The translations under genes and the position numbers were made by a program. Below are positions 1 to 7,767 of a stretch of DNA of 14,391 nt, one piece after another (position 1 is the stretch's first letter; each line of letters begins with the position of its first letter). This DNA comes from a virus (lineage: Duplodnaviria; Heunggongvirae; Uroviricota; Caudoviricetes). Location: positions 64,001-78,391 of the IMG/VR virus record IMGVR_UViG_3300033994_001334, one strand, 5' to 3'. Under the pieces are notes generated by a model. The model saw nothing but the letters and a program-made list of their open reading frames with translations, did not search any database and was not told the DNA's origin.

Positions 1-219
1 ACTTAGTTTATTTTCTTTGTTTTCCTGTGAAGTTTCATCTAATTCATCCTCAATCCCCTTTACTTCCTTATCATATTCTTTAAATCTATTAGGGTTTGAC
101 ATCATTGCACTTTTAGGGAATAATCTCTTCTTACGAGTATTTGCAAGTGAGCGAGACCTTTCATCTAAATTACTATCGATGATTTTTTTTAGTTGTGATT
201 CTGTTACTATGAATTTCAT
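1..219 (-). CDS. Hypothetical protein with TESQL leader, 3' end runs off the window
   Basis: Not in ORF track. Manual translation from ATG at 219 gives MKFIVTESQLKKIIDSNLDERSRSLANTRKKRLFPK..., open to base 1. Start lies 1 nt after the upstream stop (221-223). Confidence 0.85.
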   Translation of the reverse strand, partial: MKFIVTESQLKKIIDSNLDERSRSLANTRKKRLFPKSAMMSNPNRFKEYDKEVKGIEDELDETSQENKENKLS

Positions 220-220
220 T

Positions 221-736
221 TTATTTATTTTCGTTAAAGTTATTCTGTATTTTAGATTTCATTGTTTTAAGTTTCTTAACCATATCGGTATTATCTTTGA
301 TGATGATTACTTTAGGTTCCGGTTCGGGAATTCTCATTTCAACAACGTCACCATTTGACCCATTTCCCTCATCAACTCTTTTCACGGTCATCTCATTGTT
401 TTTAATTATTGTTTGTTTATTTGAACGCTCAGCATCTTTAATCATACCGTTAACAATGTTCATTATTTCTTTTTGTTTCTCAATTAAATTATTGGTACAT
501 TCTTTCTGTCCGGTTAATACTTGGGTGTTAAGTTCATTAACTCTTTGATTTAATTCAACGATTTGTTGTTCTTGACTTTTAAGTCTTATTGTCAATTCAT
601 CACACGTACTTGTATTAGAATTAATCAATGAAGGACCGAGTGTTATTGTTACAATTGATATTACCAATATTAATAAAGCCAAAATTCTTTGACCCTGAGT
701 GAAACTCTTTAATATTTGTGAGATGTATTCGAACAT
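221..736 (-). CDS. Single-pass membrane protein with coiled coil (i-spanin-like topology), 171 aa
   Basis: Start moved from TTG 754 to ATG 736 because the TATTTATA motif lies at 740-747. N-terminal TM ILALLILVISIVTITLG, then a Q/E/N-rich heptad region with two Cys. Confidence 0.8.
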   Translation of the reverse strand: MFEYISQILKSFTQGQRILALLILVISIVTITLGPSLINSNTSTCDELTIRLKSQEQQIVELNQRVNELNTQVLTGQKECTNNLIEKQKEIMNIVNGMIKDAERSNKQTIIKNNEMTVKRVDEGNGSNGDVVEMRIPEPEPKVIIIKDNTDMVKKLKTMKSKIQNNFNENK

Positions 737-739
737 ACC

Positions 740-747
740 TATAAATA
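740..747 (-). promoter_or_regulatory. TATTTAT upstream motif (putative late promoter/initiator)
   Basis: Sense TATTTATA, 3 nt before ATG 736. Confidence 0.6.
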
Positions 748-857
748 TCACCAATGTTATTAATAGATAATGGAAAATTTTTTCTAAAAATGGTCGTTTA
801 GTGGAAAAAAATCTATGTTTTAATTAAATAAACAGGTTTTAGTGGAAAAAATTACAT

Positions 858-886
858 AAAAAAACCCATCCTTGTGAGATGGGTTT
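858..886 (-). terminator. Intrinsic terminator after 908..1894
   Basis: Minus strand AAACCCATC-TCACAAG-GATGGGTTT followed by a T-run. Confidence 0.8.
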
Positions 887-907
887 AATAATTTTAAATT
901 ATGTGTT

Positions 908-1894
908 TTACCATTTAAAATCACTTAATCCTTTAACTCTTGTGGCATGTCCTGCACCCCAAGAACTAATTTTTAATTGTTTGCCACCATCAATAAAATC
1001 TATCTGTAATGGGTTATTTTTACCACTATCTACTTCAGGTGATGAAACAACTACAGTAAGACGACCACCAAAAGCTTCAGATGGGTCAGAATTTTTAAAA
1101 TTAGGTTGCCAATCCCAATATTTAACAGAATATTTAGATAATATATATTTTTTACCATCAGCAAGTACTTTATATATACTTGATGAATATGTGTTATCAT
1201 TATCAGGTAATTGATATCCTATATATATGTTACTCATCCAAGGGTCATCTTCCGACTGAGCCCATATCATAACTTGTTGATTATCACTTCTACATTTATC
1301 TGTAAATTTCCAATATCCAATCCAAGGTGCGTCATTCCTAGCAACTGCCGAATCAGGTAATTCCATCTTAACGTTAGGTTTCAGGGTCATTTGTTTATAT
1401 TGTACTGTATCGTTTTTCACAGACTTAGGCTTAGGTATATATTTACCTAAACCATATACTATATTATCTAAATCAACAGTTTTACCTGCGGTGTTTAAAA
1501 AATCAACAGATTCACTATTTTGTTCAATTTTAGATGGGTCGACAGTTTTTTCTATTTTAGCTGGTTCAATATCATCTGAAGATACTTTACTACAAGAGGT
1601 AACCCCAACTGCAGATATTATACAAAGAGCATATGTTCTAAGTTTAGAGTTTAAATCTTCTGTCATTTCTTCTGAATATTCATCATTATCGCCAGATAAA
1701 TCAACTGAAAGTGTTTTATGGTCACCTTCGTCACTATCTCTATAATCAATTATTTTAACCTTAACGGTCCCTTCTTTTTCTGGGTCTAAATCTTTTAGAC
1801 TATTGAATATTACATCTGAAGTATTTTCAGATTCATTAATGGACATTAATCCTTTAATTCTTCTGATTTCACTTATTATTTTTCTGTTCATCAT
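908..1894 (-). CDS. Hypothetical protein: leader, acidic linker, internal hydrophobic segment ending TSC, Trp/Tyr-rich C-terminal domain
   Basis: 328-aa ORF with upstream motif at 1898-1905 and downstream terminator. Leader ISEIRRIKGLMSINE; internal YALCIISAVGVTSC. Confidence 0.88.
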   Translation of the reverse strand: MMNRKIISEIRRIKGLMSINESENTSDVIFNSLKDLDPEKEGTVKVKIIDYRDSDEGDHKTLSVDLSGDNDEYSEEMTEDLNSKLRTYALCIISAVGVTSCSKVSSDDIEPAKIEKTVDPSKIEQNSESVDFLNTAGKTVDLDNIVYGLGKYIPKPKSVKNDTVQYKQMTLKPNVKMELPDSAVARNDAPWIGYWKFTDKCRSDNQQVMIWAQSEDDPWMSNIYIGYQLPDNDNTYSSSIYKVLADGKKYILSKYSVKYWDWQPNFKNSDPSEAFGGRLTVVVSSPEVDSGKNNPLQIDFIDGGKQLKISSWGAGHATRVKGLSDFKW

Positions 1895-1897
1895 CTA

Positions 1898-1905
1898 TAT
1901 AAATA
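1898..1905 (-). promoter_or_regulatory. TATTTAT upstream motif
   Basis: Sense TATTTATA, 3 nt before ATG 1894. Confidence 0.6.
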
Positions 1906-1969
1906 TAAAAACATTTAACTTATTTTATTTTAATTTTTGATATTATTAATCCGATTAATTTACGGAAAC

Positions 1970-2000
1970 AAAAAACCCCATCCTTGTGAGATGGGGTTTT
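1970..2000 (-). terminator. Intrinsic terminator after 2017..2937
   Basis: Same 19-bp core as 865-883 (1977-1995) with one extra stem pair and a T-run. Confidence 0.8.
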
Positions 2001-2016
2001 AATATTATTTTAAATA

Positions 2017-2937
2017 TTACTTTGATGAACGATTATAACCAAGGAAACCGTCGCAAATTGGATTTTCACCCATTTGTGAATTACGTAAATTTAAATTATT
2101 AACATAAGACTTACAAAAATTATTTACTTTAGACTTACTATCAACAATCATTTTACTAGCTACTCCACCACTTTTCTTATCTAGTAATGCTTTCCATGGG
2201 GTACCCAAATTCTTTCCATTTGTTTTTACATACCATAGTTTTAAAAATTCATTTTGTGTTGGTAAGTCAAAACTAGTCCACATGTTAGCTGCATTTTCAA
2301 TAAAATTGACATCACCCCCAGGAGCAGTTGAACCAATAATTCCGTTATATAATGAGTCAACGGCGGTTTTAGCATTTGAACTACTACCTTTAGGCCAACT
2401 TTTACTTCCCGCTTTGTTTAACCAAACATCTTTTCCATCTGGTGTTTTATAACCTTCACCTCCAACAACAGATGATGTTGGTGAATAAATCGTGTTTTTA
2501 TCAATCCAATAAGTAGGAGCGGTTTGCGTTCCTTTTGAAGGTAACATTTGCTCAACTAATGGTTTTAAATTTTTGTTATGTTGATTGTATATTTTTCTTA
2601 ATAATAACTGTCCTTCGTTTAAACTAATTTCATTTTCTCTAATTGATAGGTTATCCAAATCACTCATTGTTCCTTCAAAACCTGGCATGTCTTCAATACC
2701 ATTTTCGTCTTCTTCATAATTTGAATCTCCATTATTTTGTTCAATATCTGAACATACTTCCTTAACTAAATCCCAATCTTGCATTTCCATTGCGTTGTTA
2801 AGTTTATCAGATATGTAATTTAAAAAATCTGGATTGTTTTTAAAATCTGATGATTCCGGTTCATCCATCATTTCATTAAGTGCTTTATGTTTAGCAATCA
2901 TTTTCAATTGCGATTCTGTTATTTTAATTTTAGCCAT
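2017..2937 (-). CDS. Hypothetical protein with TESQL leader (putative virion-internal protein)
   Basis: 306-aa ORF. MAKIKITESQLK...ALNE leader, acidic region, then second LNE/LVE motifs before a distinct C-terminal domain. Confidence 0.88.
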   Translation of the reverse strand: MAKIKITESQLKMIAKHKALNEMMDEPESSDFKNNPDFLNYISDKLNNAMEMQDWDLVKEVCSDIEQNNGDSNYEEDENGIEDMPGFEGTMSDLDNLSIRENEISLNEGQLLLRKIYNQHNKNLKPLVEQMLPSKGTQTAPTYWIDKNTIYSPTSSVVGGEGYKTPDGKDVWLNKAGSKSWPKGSSSNAKTAVDSLYNGIIGSTAPGGDVNFIENAANMWTSFDLPTQNEFLKLWYVKTNGKNLGTPWKALLDKKSGGVASKMIVDSKSKVNNFCKSYVNNLNLRNSQMGENPICDGFLGYNRSSK

Positions 2938-2952
2938 TGTTTGTGTTTTTTA

Positions 2953-2960
2953 TATAAATA
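2953..2960 (-). promoter_or_regulatory. TATTTAT upstream motif
   Basis: Sense TATTTATA, 15 nt before ATG 2937. Confidence 0.6.
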
Positions 2961-2974
2961 TCTGATTATTTCAA

Positions 2975-3223
2975 TTAATATCGTCCTGACAAATAAACAT
3001 ACATAACCTCGGGGATTTTTGTACAAATTTGTTTGTTACCTTCGGAATCCGTACAATCAATATAGGGTAAACCTTGGATATAACTTCTTATTTCTTTTGG
3101 TGTAATAAAAAATCCTTTTTGGTTTTTCATATTTAATTTTTTAACCAAAAATTCCCTATTATACAATTTTTCAGAATCGTAATTTTCAGTTATTAAGGAA
3201 TTAAATGTAGATAATAATTTCAT
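2975..3223 (-). CDS. Small hypothetical protein
   Basis: 82 aa. N-terminus MKLLSTFNSLITE resembles T4 capsid-targeting sequences; motif at 3229-3236. Confidence 0.8.
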   Translation of the reverse strand: MKLLSTFNSLITENYDSEKLYNREFLVKKLNMKNQKGFFITPKEIRSYIQGLPYIDCTDSEGNKQICTKIPEVMYVYLSGRY

Positions 3224-3225
3224 TA

Positions 3226-3309
3226 TTATATAAATAGTCGTTTTATTGAATAAACTATCATCAATGTGATAAATATGGTAGCATATAATAAATTACCAAT
3301 TGTTTTCAC
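3226..3309 (-). CDS. Possible 27-aa hydrophobic micro-ORF
   Basis: GTG start 2 nt after the stop at 3312 gives MKTIGNLLYATIFITLMIVYSIKRLFI. Fills the gap exactly but is very short. Confidence 0.25.
   Translation of the reverse strand: MKTIGNLLYATIFITLMIVYSIKRLFI
3229..3236 (-). promoter_or_regulatory. TATTTAT upstream motif
   Basis: Sense TATTTATA, 5 nt before ATG 3223. Confidence 0.6.
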
Positions 3310-3311
3310 AA

Positions 3312-3485
3312 TTATTCTACTTCACTAGTTGTTTGGAGATAATAACGTACACCCATGTAGGTGATATATTGGCTTGTTGGCATTTGTGTTGTCCAAACTT
3401 CCGTGATACCCTTACCTTTTTTTTCCAAAGGTCTCATCGTTATTTTTTTAGGTGTGATTTTAATAGTTCTTAATTCTTTTGTCAT
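3312..3485 (-). CDS. Small basic hypothetical protein, 57 aa
   Basis: Below the ORF-track cutoff. Manual translation MTKELRTIKITPKKITMRPLEKKGKGITEVWTTQMPTSQYITYMGVRYYLQTTSEVE; fills the gap on the same strand as its neighbours. Confidence 0.55.
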   Translation of the reverse strand: MTKELRTIKITPKKITMRPLEKKGKGITEVWTTQMPTSQYITYMGVRYYLQTTSEVE

Positions 3486-3572
3486 GATATGTCCCTTTTA
3501 AAATATGGGGTCGTTAAAATATAAGGATTATTAATATGATTGTAAAGGAATGCCGATTCCGGCGCCCAACCA

Positions 3573-3770
3573 TCACTTTTTTCGATACCGGCTCCAGAGG
3601 TTAGGTTTCATTTTTTTAAAAAATCTTTTTTTCTTTTTTGTTACCTTATTAACCGTGGTTTTATTATCAGTCTGATACTTTGCGGATATATTATCAATCT
3701 TAATCATATCCTCTTTCTCACAAGAGACAAATAGGAATGACACCATCAATACAAAAACAAAACGAATCAT
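3573..3770 (-). CDS. Small putative lipoprotein with Lys/Arg-rich tail
   Basis: MIRFVFVLMVSFLFVSC is a signal peptide II with lipobox Cys17. Start abuts the upstream stop at 3771-3773. Confidence 0.75.
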   Translation of the reverse strand: MIRFVFVLMVSFLFVSCEKEDMIKIDNISAKYQTDNKTTVNKVTKKKKRFFKKMKPNLWSRYRKK

Positions 3771-4388
3771 TTATTTATTATTATGAACCGAAAGATATCC
3801 AGCCAATCTTTCACCCTTCTCCCTGAAGTAATCAATTTTAGTGTCATTCATGTGGGTCGATTCTAAAAAGTCAATACCGATTGTCCCCATAAGTTTACCC
3901 GTACCAAAATCAAAAAGACCAAGAATATAACTTGCTCTTGCTCCGGTCGCTTCAGCTGCGGGTTTTAATCCATATGTTGCAACCTCGGGATTATGATAAT
4001 CACAAATACCAATGAATCTACTCCTTAAAACCTCAACAAACAATCTCGAGTATAAGGATATTGGCATATTTGTAAAAATGGTCGATACGGAAGAAACACC
4101 GGGGGAATTTACCTCATAAACAACGGAGAATTTTTGCATCGATTTATTTGAATGTAAGAAGTGTCCTCCGTTATGTATTTGAGTAACCCATACTCTATCA
4201 CATTCTAAGTGATTTAAGACTTCCTCTAATTCCAAATTTATTTTTTCAATTTGGTTGAGTTCAACCTTTAAAGTGTCTACTGGTTTTGTGAATTTTCTCT
4301 TCACCCACATAATTGCAATTGGCCCAAAAAAAGCGGTAATTAAGGCTACTAAGACACTTCCGAAAATCTCTAACATGTGATTAAGCAT
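3771..4388 (-). CDS. Putative holin-like protein (N-terminal TM, coiled coil, GAF-like domain; T4 T-type architecture)
   Basis: TM GSVLVALITAFFGPIAIMW, helical linker, then DRVWVTQIHNGG...KFSVVYE...MGTIGIDF, a GAF-like pattern recalled from phage holin-like proteins. Start may be 4376. Confidence 0.55.
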   Translation of the reverse strand: MLNHMLEIFGSVLVALITAFFGPIAIMWVKRKFTKPVDTLKVELNQIEKINLELEEVLNHLECDRVWVTQIHNGGHFLHSNKSMQKFSVVYEVNSPGVSSVSTIFTNMPISLYSRLFVEVLRSRFIGICDYHNPEVATYGLKPAAEATGARASYILGLFDFGTGKLMGTIGIDFLESTHMNDTKIDYFREKGERLAGYLSVHNNK

Positions 4389-4394
4389 TTTTAA

Positions 4395-4994
4395 TTAAAA
4401 TCTATTACCGCAGTAATCTCTCTTATCCATGAATAAACCTTCAACTAACCATATTAAGTTTAACAAAAGGAAGAATCCAACAATTACGGTTAAACACATC
4501 AATGGGAATGAAGCCATAACAATTGCAACTACCCCTTGTTCATTAACTTGTGCAACTTGACCGTTATTTGTTGGTTGTGTTGTTTTACCGGTATTTTGGT
4601 CAGTTTTAACACCAATCATTTGGAATATCTTTTGTGCAGCTGTTTTTGGTTGTGTTATAAGACCTTTAATTGTTTTAATTGAGTTCTTAACCATATCCTT
4701 ATTGGAGTTCTTTACAAATGTTATCATTTTTGATACGATTTCTCTAGTTTGGTCTTCAGGAACTTTTAAAGAAACTAATTTATTTGTAAGATTATTGGCT
4801 AATGAACTTACTTTAACGTTCTGAGAACAAAATTGGTCTTTATTAACCATCTTTTTTTGGTCTAAAACATCCAATGTATCACTAAAAACTTGTATGTTAT
4901 TATCAGGTTCATTCATTGGTAAATCGTCAGTCTCGTTTAATATTTTAGTAACTACTTTTTTTAAATCGGACTCGGTTAATCGTATTATTTTCAT
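4395..4994 (-). CDS. Leader-bearing protein with C-terminal membrane segment
   Basis: MKIIRLTESDLKKVVTKILNE leader; second VNE motif followed by GVVAIVMASFPLMCLTVIVGFFLLLNLIWLV. Confidence 0.85.
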   Translation of the reverse strand: MKIIRLTESDLKKVVTKILNETDDLPMNEPDNNIQVFSDTLDVLDQKKMVNKDQFCSQNVKVSSLANNLTNKLVSLKVPEDQTREIVSKMITFVKNSNKDMVKNSIKTIKGLITQPKTAAQKIFQMIGVKTDQNTGKTTQPTNNGQVAQVNEQGVVAIVMASFPLMCLTVIVGFFLLLNLIWLVEGLFMDKRDYCGNRF

Positions 4995-5012
4995 GTGTGT
5001 ATATGTTTACAT

Positions 5013-5020
5013 TATAAATA
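5013..5020 (-). promoter_or_regulatory. TATTTAT upstream motif
   Basis: Sense TATTTATA, 18 nt before ATG 4994. Confidence 0.6.
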
Positions 5021-5032
5021 TAAAGAAATAAT

Positions 5033-5061
5033 AAAAAAAAACCCACCTTTTTGGGGTGGGT
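5033..5061 (-). terminator. Intrinsic terminator after 5084..5413
   Basis: ACCCACC/GGTGGGT stem plus a T-run on the minus strand. Confidence 0.75.
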
Positions 5062-5083
5062 GATTAATATTTTTTATTTTATT

Positions 5084-5413
5084 TTAATCGGTATAAATGG
5101 AATATGTTACCATACCACCTTTAATTGTCACCTCAAGTTGTCCGAACCCTTTTAAATCAGAGAACATTAACTTGTCGTTATCACTTCCGGTTATTTTATC
5201 ATTACCCGATACCATCATGTTTTTGGTACACATATTACCGTTAATTTTAATTGACTTACCGCAATTTAGAACTTTTAATTTTTGTCCTTTATATTTGGTA
5301 TAGATATTACCGACATTTTTACCTGTTGATAATGTTTGTCCACCTTTACCTGACGGCATTGACTCCTCAATAATTTTTTTTAGTTGGGATTCTGTTATAA
5401 TAATTTTTCTCAT
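5084..5413 (-). CDS. Small protein with TESQL leader
   Basis: 109 aa, MRKIIITESQLKKIIEE. Upstream motif at 5433-5440; terminator downstream. Confidence 0.85.
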   Translation of the reverse strand: MRKIIITESQLKKIIEESMPSGKGGQTLSTGKNVGNIYTKYKGQKLKVLNCGKSIKINGNMCTKNMMVSGNDKITGSDNDKLMFSDLKGFGQLEVTIKGGMVTYSIYTD

Positions 5414-5432
5414 GTTAAATTCGTTGTTTAAA

Positions 5433-5440
5433 TATAAATA
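5433..5440 (-). promoter_or_regulatory. TATTTAT upstream motif
   Basis: Sense TATTTATA, 19 nt before ATG 5413. Confidence 0.6.
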
Positions 5441-5469
5441 TCAAGGAAATTAAATTGTTTCTTTATTTT

Positions 5470-6060
5470 TTAATTATTATAATCAGGTTCATCATTCGGT
5501 TCATAATCGGGTTCATTGTCCGCTTGACTCTCACGTTCCTCGTCTTGGATTGATTCATCCATTGTTTTCACAATAAAATCAGATGACATTTCACCATTAC
5601 TTAATTTAATATCCATAATACCCGTGAAATCATTTCCTTTATAAATTACCCCACTACTGGTCTCATCATTAAGATTGGTAACACTTTTTACTAATTCAAC
5701 ACTTGTTATGTCAAGGTCATACTCAGCGTTTTCACCCTCAGCAGGATAACTATCGTCATTACTTGTACCATACCTTGCTGGTGTGTATGATGAACGTTGA
5801 GTATAGGTTATATCAAAATTATAATTAAGGATATATTGGGTATCACCTACCGGTTCACCTCCAATTGCAAACCAACCATCACTTGAACTTACATTAAAAG
5901 TATCAATCTCAGGATTCTGAATGAAGTTGTTTATTATCTTGGTTGATTCTCGTCTAACATCCAAAGGAATCTCAGATTCAACAGGTTTATCAAAAGAACC
6001 CTCATTGATGGTCTTCATCATTTGTTTAATACGTTCTATGTCGTTACCTAAATTTTTCAT
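5470..6060 (-). CDS. Acidic hypothetical protein with IxRIK leader
   Basis: 196 aa, DIERIKQMMKTINE leader, acidic C-terminal EPDY repeats. Confidence 0.85.
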   Translation of the reverse strand: MKNLGNDIERIKQMMKTINEGSFDKPVESEIPLDVRRESTKIINNFIQNPEIDTFNVSSSDGWFAIGGEPVGDTQYILNYNFDITYTQRSSYTPARYGTSNDDSYPAEGENAEYDLDITSVELVKSVTNLNDETSSGVIYKGNDFTGIMDIKLSNGEMSSDFIVKTMDESIQDEERESQADNEPDYEPNDEPDYNN

Positions 6061-6073
6061 ATAGTAATTTTAT

Positions 6074-6081
6074 AATAAATA
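6074..6081 (-). promoter_or_regulatory. TATTTAT upstream motif
   Basis: Sense TATTTATT, 13 nt before ATG 6060. Confidence 0.55.
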
Positions 6082-6135
6082 CCAAATTAATCAAAAAAGG
6101 GTCTCCAAGTCTGATGTTAATTAATTCAGATTATC

Positions 6136-7137
6136 TTATTTCATAACTTGTTCAAGACTCTTAATTAAAATATCAGTACTATCTTTAACGTACTCTAAAT
6201 TATTCCAAACACCAGTTTCATTTTTTGGAAGTCTTTTTTGAATATCATTTATTTCACCAACTACTCTATATGCTTCTTCCATAAAATACTTCAAATTAAA
6301 GTTCGCGTTTTTTGAAATGGTTTGGGACATATTTTTTAAATTTGTTAATGCAATATCAAGACCATTATATTCTATTTTAGTGCTATTACCTACTGTACCA
6401 TATTTTTTTATAGTTTTTAAACTACTTAAAATATTTCCTTTACGGCCATTAATTGTGTTAAAAAAGAAATCATTTACCTTAATGTTTGGTGTTTTTTGTA
6501 AAAAAAGTTTAACATTTTGAGGTATTAACGATGTAGACCCACCTGTAACGGGAATAAGATTTTTTGAACCCCCACTTTGAGCAAAAGAAGGTTTGGGTTT
6601 AAATGAAGATTTAACCTTATTAATTTCAGATAAAATTAAATCCTTTTTTTGTGCAATTCTTTTCGCTACCGCCATTTCATTAGGTAATAACTTTGCACCT
6701 GTAGATATTTTTTTACCTAATTCTCCTAAAGCTTTAGCTCCCCATTTAGATAATCCTAATTTACTTGCCAACCCACCTACACCAGGTATAACTGAAAATA
6801 CACCAACTAATCCTGCGGTTTTTTTATCCCCTTCATTATAATACATTGCAGCATCTGCTAACCCAATACCCATAGAAATAAAAGGTCCAACAAAAGGAAT
6901 AAATGCAGTACCGATTTGTAATATCGTCATGGCTGTGTGTTTATCCATATTACCCATGGTAACATCCATTGCTTTATTAGTAACCCTGTTTACCGTATTA
7001 TAATCCTCTTGACTTCTATTTCCAAGACTACGAGAAATTGCATTTGATTGAGCATCCATTGCATAATCACTTTTTTGTTCGTATAAACCTCTAATGTGTT
7101 TTCTATCTTGTTCTGTTATAACAAATTTTCGACTCAT
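6136..7137 (-). CDS. Leader-bearing protein with pre-toxin-like hydrophobic hairpin, 333 aa
   Basis: Start moved to ATG 7137 (MSRKFVITEQD) since the motif is at 7150-7157. Contains AFIPFVG...GLADAAMYYNEGD...AGLVGVFSVIPGVGG. Confidence 0.8.
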   Translation of the reverse strand: MSRKFVITEQDRKHIRGLYEQKSDYAMDAQSNAISRSLGNRSQEDYNTVNRVTNKAMDVTMGNMDKHTAMTILQIGTAFIPFVGPFISMGIGLADAAMYYNEGDKKTAGLVGVFSVIPGVGGLASKLGLSKWGAKALGELGKKISTGAKLLPNEMAVAKRIAQKKDLILSEINKVKSSFKPKPSFAQSGGSKNLIPVTGGSTSLIPQNVKLFLQKTPNIKVNDFFFNTINGRKGNILSSLKTIKKYGTVGNSTKIEYNGLDIALTNLKNMSQTISKNANFNLKYFMEEAYRVVGEINDIQKRLPKNETGVWNNLEYVKDSTDILIKSLEQVMK

Positions 7138-7149
7138 AAATTTTTTATT

Positions 7150-7157
7150 AATAAATA
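7150..7157 (-). promoter_or_regulatory. TATTTAT upstream motif
   Basis: Sense TATTTATT, 12 nt before ATG 7137. Confidence 0.55.
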
Positions 7158-7169
7158 TCCACAAATGTT

Positions 7170-7574
7170 TTATATTCCATACCACTCCAAGATTTCTTCA
7201 CCCGATTTAATATCCCGAAGTGTTTTACCAAAACCATCCACGTTTTGATTTTCTTTATATGGATATGAGGAGTTACAAAAGGATGATGAATGAACAAGAT
7301 AATTTAACCCATTAAAGAGTCTTATTATTTTATAATCGGGGTCATCGTCAATGAAATTCATATTAATCATTTTCAATACCGGTGCGGGAAGTTCATTTAA
7401 TCTATTTTTCGGTATTCTATAAATTCCAGTACCATTTGACCATTTTGTGAATATGTAAGTATTTTTGGGAATATCAACAATTGCAAATACACCAATACCA
7501 TGAACCTCTGATAAACGAAGTTCGGTTAGGATATTATGTTTTAAATGGTAAATTACCTCATCCGTTATATCCAT
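7170..7574 (-). CDS. SET-domain protein (putative protein lysine methyltransferase)
   Basis: SEVHGIGVFA (motif I), YLVHSS..CN (variant of the NHS motif), RDIKSGEEILEWY (terminal GEE..Y motif). Confidence 0.8.
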   Translation of the reverse strand: MDITDEVIYHLKHNILTELRLSEVHGIGVFAIVDIPKNTYIFTKWSNGTGIYRIPKNRLNELPAPVLKMINMNFIDDDPDYKIIRLFNGLNYLVHSSSFCNSSYPYKENQNVDGFGKTLRDIKSGEEILEWYGI

Positions 7575-7759: not shown

Positions 7760-7767
7760 TATAAATA
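7760..7767 (-). promoter_or_regulatory. TATTTAT upstream motif
   Basis: Sense TATTTATA, 16 nt before ATG 7743. Confidence 0.6.

Follow-up and report, generated by a model that had tools for sequence, protein, structure and literature searches.

A short peptide shared by unrelated proteins of a giant lake-water phage, a putative capsid-loading tag

The window examined here comprises the last 14.4 kb of the 78,391-bp IMG/VR record G000 (G+C 31.8 %), and contains a minus-strand array of genes whose products have unrelated bodies and share a short N-terminal peptide, hereafter the tag. The record, with a CheckV completeness of 25 %, is a fragment of a roughly 300-kb phage that, judging from its sequence, is a giant, T4-related phage of lake water. 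Near-identical DNA of the locus was found again in many lake-water metagenomes, at least nine lake runs other than the source containing half of the locus or more, whereas no RNA run was listed as containing it; a nucleotide search with the record against 50,697 deposited phages returned no match. The record also codes for a T4 Rnl1/gp63-like RNA ligase and a band-7 protein, and the presence of a type IX secretion sorting domain on one of its proteins indicates a host from the Bacteroidota. Relatives were gathered with a back-translated pattern for I-I-T-E-S-Q-L-K-K-I-I, which recovered 12 IMG/VR contigs. One of them, G001 (288,260 bp, 92 % complete), is syntenic with the record, 59 of whose 103 open reading frames (ORFs) match it in synteny, mostly with 55–85 % identity; by synteny, the left end of the record stops one gene before the G001 terminase. 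Synteny with the window is shown by L040, a 190-kb scaffold from ENA. Use of tagged gene g87 as a query for relatives in IMG/VR found none.

Tagged genes and their shared leader

The eight minus-strand leaders reported in an earlier note on this DNA are all present and read as described there, starting at window positions 219, 1894, 2937, 3223, 4994, 5413, 6060, and 7137. Four of the corresponding genes, all on the minus strand, have what we call a type-1 tag: g76 (1..219, the 5′ part of a gene spanning 63683-64219 of the record, with tag MKFIVTESQLKKIIDSNLDE at 160-219), g79 (2017..2937, MAKIKITESQLKMIAKHKALNE at 2872-2937), g84 (4395..4994, MKIIRLTESDLKKVVTKILNE at 4932-4994) and g85 (5084..5413, MRKIIITESQLKKIIEE at 5363-5413). 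Genes g78 (908..1894) and g86 (5470..6060) start with type-2 tags, in g78 a helix-only tag ending in EIRRIKGLMSINE at about 1832-1894 and in g86 MKNLGNDIERIKQMMKTINE at 6001-6060. Gene g80 (2975..3223) has the short tag MKLLSTFNSLITE at 3185-3223, which is a genuine alternative tag because in the G001 orthologue a complete type-1 tag takes its position. Gene g87 (6136..7137) has the tag MSRKFVITEQDRKHIRGLYE at 7078-7137; its start was taken as the ATG at 7137, and not an upstream GTG, because a promoter-like motif sits between both.

The tag spans around 21 residues and has two parts. In type 1, part A follows the pattern M-(x)-[KR]-[IVF]-[IV]-[IVL]-[TK]-E (typically M-x-K-I-I-I-T-E), and part B is an amphipathic helix, S-[QD]-L-K-K-[IV]-[IV]-x-x-x-[LI]-x-E. 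The type-2 leaders (x-I-x-R-I-K-x-[LM]-M-x-x-I-N-E), which the earlier note had set apart, align with part B alone.

Six further leaders occur in the record beyond the window (genome 37254-, 52049-, 58595+, 62548-, 62618+ and 63574-), which brings the tagged proteins of the record to at least 14, and all 14 tags begin at residue 1. A hidden Markov model (HMM) of the leaders, a check proposed in the earlier note, separated them clearly from the rest of the record: built from 10 leaders, it scored leaders with 24–35 bits and the next protein with 3.5 bits. In four related IMG/VR records, left out of the building of the model, it found 9–13 places per record, with per-genome E-values down to 7e-9, and among the 227 ORFs of 13 related loci it had 47 matches, 43 of them beginning at residue 6 or earlier.

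The tag is also widespread. A profile of 34 tags retrieved 590 clusters (50 % identity) with E ≤ 0.001 among 1.84 billion representatives; in the best 150 of the 590 cluster representatives, 143 had a copy that begins within the first six residues, a ranking that favours N-terminal copies since the first position of the profile is Met. Some 80 of the 90 examined representatives of at least 100 residues were without a Pfam domain. Dispersal of the leader among housekeeping enzymes, named in the earlier note as speaking against a dedicated address, was not seen, and no such enzyme carried it in the record or among the 90 representatives. False positives of the profile search included P0079, a phage-tail-repeat (PTR) protein of 957 aa with I-T-[IE]-S-Q-V-x-x-L-[IV]-D-D-L inside its repeats; four representatives matching the Peptidase_S74 tail-fibre chaperone domain at weak E-values are possibly false positives too. 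A tblastn search of the phage collection with a 25-aa tag gave no match, probably because the query is too short, and a word-based protein search with residues 1–40 of g76 returned orthologues of g76 only and no other tagged families.

A tag found at the 5′ end of many genes, beside a shared upstream motif, might in principle be conserved as nucleic acid, either as a translation-initiation or mRNA element or as a DNA repeat. Codon choice makes this hardly credible. At identical leader residues the codons differed in 84 of 187 comparisons, as codon usage predicts (103 identical, with 90.9 expected from the codon usage of the genome), and Ser was written in five ways (TCC, TCA, TCG, TCT, and AGT). 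Conservation therefore acts on the peptide, and not on a DNA repeat or mRNA element; in-frame copies inside proteins, described below, also speak against such an element. The synonymous variation reveals purifying selection acting on the tag peptide.

The upstream motif, TATTTAT(A), lies 11–28 nt upstream of the ATG in 12 of the 14 tagged genes of the record and in 15 of its 89 other genes (p=7e-7); the corresponding figures for G001 are 11/14 and 48/350 (p=2e-7). In the window it precedes g78 (1899-1905), g79 (2954-2960), g80 (3230-3236), g84 (5014-5020), g85 (5434-5440), g86 (6075-6081), and g87 (7151-7157), all on the minus strand, and is absent from all nine plus-strand genes in the right half. 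Gene g76 lacks such a motif and directly adjoins the upstream g77, an untagged, presumably late gene (221..736, minus strand) preceded by TATTTAT at 741-747; both are probably co-transcribed. Altogether, the motif occurs within 45 nt upstream of 27 genes in the record and 59 in G001, where 1.8 and 3.7 would be found under a uniform distribution. In G001, TATTTATA is also found ahead of the terminase, portal, protease and scaffold-position genes, and of many very large genes that are probably tail genes. Read along the coding strand, the presumed core is TATTTATA, the reverse complement of the T4 late promoter TATAAATA, and by analogy with the latter it may be a late promoter. In many cases it is just 11–13 nt away from the ATG, so that very little space remains for a leader and a ribosome-binding site. 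Further presumed late genes of the relative, among them one for a candidate late sigma factor and others for large tail-like proteins, stayed without annotation in a PHROGs search.

Variable bodies and exchange of the tag

The earlier note described the proteins behind the leaders as unrelated, and comparison of the bodies bears this out: the best body-versus-body BLASTP E-value was 0.26. The tagged bodies range from 82 to 415 aa and from pI 4.1 to 9.8, and vary in charge and predicted fold; for instance, g84 has a C-terminal hydrophobic helix, g85 a beta-rich body, and g87 two glycine-rich hydrophobic helices. Pfam and PHROGs scans, run on all proteins from the window, on the six tagged proteins encoded elsewhere in the record and on ten from relatives, retrieved almost nothing. 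As exceptions among tagged proteins and their neighbours, an untagged neighbour matched phrog_38864, and the g74 orthologue of L040 (14697-15875, minus strand, 392 residues) has a peptidoglycan-binding domain of the OmpA family (30.7 bits); g74 of the record ends at 206 residues, ahead of this domain. An AlphaFold model of the g85 family (predicted local distance difference test, pLDDT, 72.5) had no PDB fold match at E ≤ 0.001, and ESM Atlas look-ups for g79 and g87 gave weak leads only. A language model placed one body near the PT-TG domain, with a weak similarity (0.82) that had no Pfam support.

Comparison of orthologues revealed that the tag and the body can be exchanged separately. The L040 orthologue of g87 has a body 92 % identical and a canonical tag in place of the variant I-T-E-Q-D-R-K-H-I-R-G-L-Y-E, and the junction is found right after a Glu: ...GLYE|QKSDYAMDAQ in the window and ...KVLNE|QKSEYAMDAQ in L040, so that similarity restarts at Q-K-S-[DE]-Y-A-M-D-A-Q. 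Likewise, 16 homologues of the g85 body have a type-2-like tag ending in K-I-N-E, or in some of them in N-T-N-E, and the common body starts right after the tag (...KIIEE|SMPSGKGGQ and ...NTNE|QSIPAGKKGQ). Orthologues of g73, g74, and g80 show tag exchange in the same manner. Bodies come and go as well: g78 and g84 have no counterpart in G001 or L040, and more genes of the window are missing from G001 alone. This is the hyperplastic behaviour known from T-even internal-protein loci, with the addition that the tag itself is swapped.

These results bear on two other origins for a shared leader. The tag could be the N-terminal remnant of a single, diverged paralogous family, or mark a recombination hot spot, without any role in addressing. 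In favour of this explanation, the genes lie together in a hypervariable region, and g76 is a chimera, joining the front of one G001 gene to the body of its neighbour; nevertheless, we consider it very unlikely, given bodies without detectable similarity that differ in length, charge and predicted fold, tag types replaced on 90 %-identical bodies, a tag that heads 590 clusters worldwide, and the selection on the peptide deduced from synonymous variation. A single short leader common to many unrelated small proteins is also the logic of ribosomally synthesized and post-translationally modified peptides (RiPPs), in which it would serve as the recognition leader for a modifying enzyme. No radical-SAM gene was found in G000–G004, which include the 92 %-complete relative, in a search that scored all the control genomes, and no maturase-like gene is evident in the array, which makes a RiPP-like leader highly improbable.

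Protease, cleavage motif and position of the tag

In T4, the capsid-targeting sequence (CTS) corresponds to the first 10 residues of IPIII (PMC3012670, PMC9026906), and, as summarised in reviews, the CTS or propeptides of IPI, IPII, IPIII and Alt are removed by the prohead protease gp21 (Mullaney & Black 1996, reviewed in PMC9026906, PMC3012670, PMC5694885). With Asp in place of the P1 Glu, T4 cargo is still targeted and its processing is blocked (PMC9026906). A comparable machinery is encoded by the relatives of the record. Both G001 and G004, syntenic relatives, have a Peptidase_S77 prohead protease (79.7 and 80.9 bits, respectively) and a Gp23 capsid protein (216 bits), and G001 also has a portal and a large terminase. 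The order in G001 of portal, two small genes, protease, an acidic gene in the scaffold position and capsid protein is that of T4 genes 20-67-68-21-22-23, and a small gene in the gp67/68 position starts with ...K-L-T-E-S. The protease and T4 gp21 share invariant, catalytic-type His (L-N-H-P), Ser (S-S-R-G), and Asp columns.

The cleavage motif predicted for this machinery also ends the tags. A three-way alignment puts the maturation Glu of T4 gp23 (L-T-E65|A66) into the same, invariant column as the Glu of I-N-E60|S61 in the G001 capsid protein, and the G004 capsid protein reads I-N-E|A at the T4-homologous maturation site. Tags often end in just this [IL]-N-E (ILNE, ALNE, SINE, TINE, VINE), and L-Y-E, which closes the tags of g87 and g41, is found in the capsid propeptide too. 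The sites cleaved in T4 Alt are I-T-E-6 and L-T-E-619, and it is normal for one propeptide to have several (PMC5694885); the first site of the tag, I-T-E|S, is thus a documented gp21 motif. Among 34 leaders from five genomes, all had a first [ILVFM]-x-E ending at residues 6–11, and 32 had a second one around residues 17–23, whereas both sites were present in only 19 of 321 background proteins of the relative. A complex prediction for protease and tag scored 0.02, short of the mark, and speaks neither for nor against the proposal.

Every testable computational prediction of a capsid-targeting or propeptide role came out as expected. We thus favour, with a probability of roughly 0.6, that the shared peptide is the version of the T4 capsid-targeting sequence or propeptide used by this lineage, which would dock proteins in the capsid and be cut there. 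The module would attach late-made cargo to the scaffolding core while the prohead is being assembled, a serine protease of the T4 gp21 type (S77) would then cleave behind the Glu of one [I/L/V]-x-E site or of both, and the mature cargo would stay inside the head with the DNA. By analogy with T4, cargo would be present in virions and ejected into the host, where it could act against it. The earlier note had put forward a tag for loading and cleavage, and the protease, the motif, the upstream motif and the Glu junctions are as expected from it; what does not hold is a strictly N-terminal position. Its proposal that the cargo proteins are effectors finds no support, almost no cargo domain being recognisable.

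Several observations weigh against capsid loading. The record itself is a fragment without the head module, and the protease and capsid protein come from relatives at about 65 % amino acid identity. The late timing of the tagged genes is deduced from the shared upstream motif. The [ILV]-x-E motif has low information, and within the corresponding residue ranges it is also found in 18–26 % of other proteins. The tag has no detectable similarity to the T4 CTS, MKTYQEFIAE (verified in the T4 record), and is twice its length, and what they have in common is an overall scheme of Met, one basic and several hydrophobic residues, and [IL]-x-E; the tag would work like a CTS yet form a sequence family of its own. 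The nearest isolate, immuto, a cultured T4-like phage of Flavobacterium with a capsid protein 41 % identical, has no such tag. Membrane helices, as in g84 and g87, or a lipoprotein-like signal on cargo are unusual for internal proteins embedded in DNA; ejection proteins with membrane helices are known in phage SPN3US (PMC5694885).

Finally, copies inside proteins and at their C-terminus are not predicted by a purely N-terminal address. At least one additional full inner copy, usually after K-K and not Met, was present in 44 of the best 150 representatives, and eight tag copies among these 150 lay within 12 residues of the C-terminus. A complete G001 gene of 108 residues (239809-240135, plus strand; L034:19809-20000 plus L035:1-135) ends with a full tag copy, K-K-K-V-I-K-L-N-E-S-E-L-I-K-V-I-K-K-V-I-K-E-N-S-K-I-stop, and its stop is overlapped by the next gene, which begins with a type-2 tag. 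The tag unit is therefore position-independent, which fits equally a cassette for docking and cutting and a plain docking helix.

The serious alternative, which we nonetheless rate as unlikely, is that of a position-independent docking helix that is not cleaved and binds another partner, such as an assembly chaperone, the ClpB/ClpC-like AAA+ ATPase of the phage, or a virion or membrane component, the Glu motif being incidental. Inner and C-terminal copies are common, as such a helix would allow, residues 8–17 of one tag are predicted as a free helix in the AlphaFold model of the g85 family, a ClpB/ClpC-type ATPase is encoded in the record (84 % identical in the relative), and [ILV]-x-E is frequent by chance. 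However, a docking helix leaves unexplained the exact junctions after Glu in the swapped orthologues and the same I-N-E at the homologous maturation site of the capsid protein; moreover, T4 gp21 cuts internally and C-terminally too, as in Alt, and inner copies fit the protease model as well.

Taking capsid loading one step further, the 21-residue unit could be a position-independent cassette for docking and cutting that marks polyprotein junctions between domains or at the C-terminus, although this is a doubtful extension. Multi-domain precursors would be packaged and cut in the head into several cargo proteins, and the two tag types could sort classes of cargo. Because of the membrane helices, an inner lipoprotein-like signal in g78 and the OmpA-type wall-binding domain of the g74 orthologue, part of the payload may act on the envelope of the next host and not on its cytoplasm.

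The inner signal lies at residues about 79–103 of g78 (window about 1586-1660, minus strand), a stretch with a lipobox Cys (M-T-E-D-L-N-S-K-L-R-T-Y-A-L-C-I-I-S-A-V-G-V-T-S-C) that sits about 80 residues past the tag and an acidic linker. It could correspond to an internal start site or to a signal exposed only once the N-terminus is processed.

Neighbouring genes, known systems and meaning

The array is interrupted by untagged genes. Besides g77, whose product has an N-terminal membrane helix and a coiled coil, with the look of a type-II membrane protein, there are three such genes within 3312..4388 (minus strand), none with a promoter motif of its own: g81 (57 aa), g82 (3573-3770, 65 aa, with a lipoprotein-like signal) and g83 (3771-4388, 205 aa, with an N-terminal membrane helix and a match to phrog_38864). 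The products of g77, g82 and g83 look envelope-directed, and an endolysin-like gene at genome 57673-58500 codes for a peptidoglycan-binding repeat; lysis or spanin-type functions are possible for these genes. Immediately upstream of the array, a minus-strand gene (7170-7574) that seems to belong to an operon preceded by TATTTAT at 7761-7767 codes for a SET-domain protein of 134 residues (Pfam SET, 29.3 bits, above the cut-off), a putative phage-encoded lysine methyltransferase. Beyond the window, tagged gene g41 heads an operon on the minus strand (genome 32279-37564) that is conserved in G001. The products of the downstream genes (729, 202 and 305 residues) begin with helix-like peptides ending in [IL]-x-E, such as ...N-L-M-E-S-I-E and ...K-Q-I-N-E, and, because all are conserved in G001, the operon may code for core head-internal proteins rather than variable cargo.

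The closest parallel is with T4 IPI, IPII, IPIII and Alt, which likewise have short N-terminal peptides ending in [I/L]-x-E on unrelated proteins, late in T4 and presumably late here. Both lineages combine an S77 protease with a gp23-type capsid protein whose maturation site reads the same motif, and several sites, putative ones in the tag, can occur per propeptide, with I-T-E| of Alt matching I-I-T-E|S of the tag. Reviews describe T-even internal proteins as ‘highly diverse ... with only a conserved CTS’ (PMC3012670; PMC9026906), and have already suggested the CTS as a general loading route for varied proteins in T4-like phages (PMC3012670, PMC9026906). The tag differs from the T4 CTS, of which there are two identical copies, in its sequence, in being about twice as long and bipartite, in having at least two interchangeable types, and in its inner and C-terminal copies; in addition, T4 has about 4–7 tagged genes, whereas a quarter of the genome has at least 14 here, known from sequence alone. 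The locus also resembles the polymorphic internal-protein loci of T-even phages, as these are cited (Repoila et al. 1994, cited in PMC9026906), in being hypervariable, with bodies that come and go and a tag that is kept, although in the present phages orthologues differ in the tag as well, which is exchanged in its turn.

Giant phages phiKZ, 201phi2-1 and SPN3US have dozens of head-internal proteins cut after Glu (PMC5694885). In these phages, gp175/gp245 process ejection and inner-body proteins at (S/A/G)-x-E, and there are identical N-terminal propeptides on paralogues, some membrane helices, and multiple and internal sites (PMC5694885); they differ from the phage studied here in their diverged S80 protease, in a small P3 residue, and in the lack of a single consensus tag on unrelated families. 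A constant addressing module with variable cargo, reshuffled by recombination, is likewise found in the N-terminal trafficking domains of bacterial polymorphic toxins, although these use secretion systems and not the capsid machinery, and there is no homology. A literature search retrieved nothing on this tag family, nor on tags like the CTS in giant phages of Bacteroidota. The principle is established for T-even phages; the gain lies in the scale, in a new tag family and in its modular behaviour, and not in a new mechanism, and the presence of the tag inside some proteins or at their C-terminus is new.

The exact tag/body junctions of the swapped orthologues predict the mature N-termini precisely, and a defined tag would be a handle for loading foreign proteins into Bacteroidota phages. 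If the tag acts as in T4, where IPI* is an inhibitor of GmrSD (PMC3012670), the packaged, and probably injected, payload of an uncultured clade of giant Bacteroidota phages would be readable from sequence. The hundreds of domainless families in the 590 clusters would then be candidate first-strike proteins, among which anti-defence roles like that of T4 IPI* would be expected.

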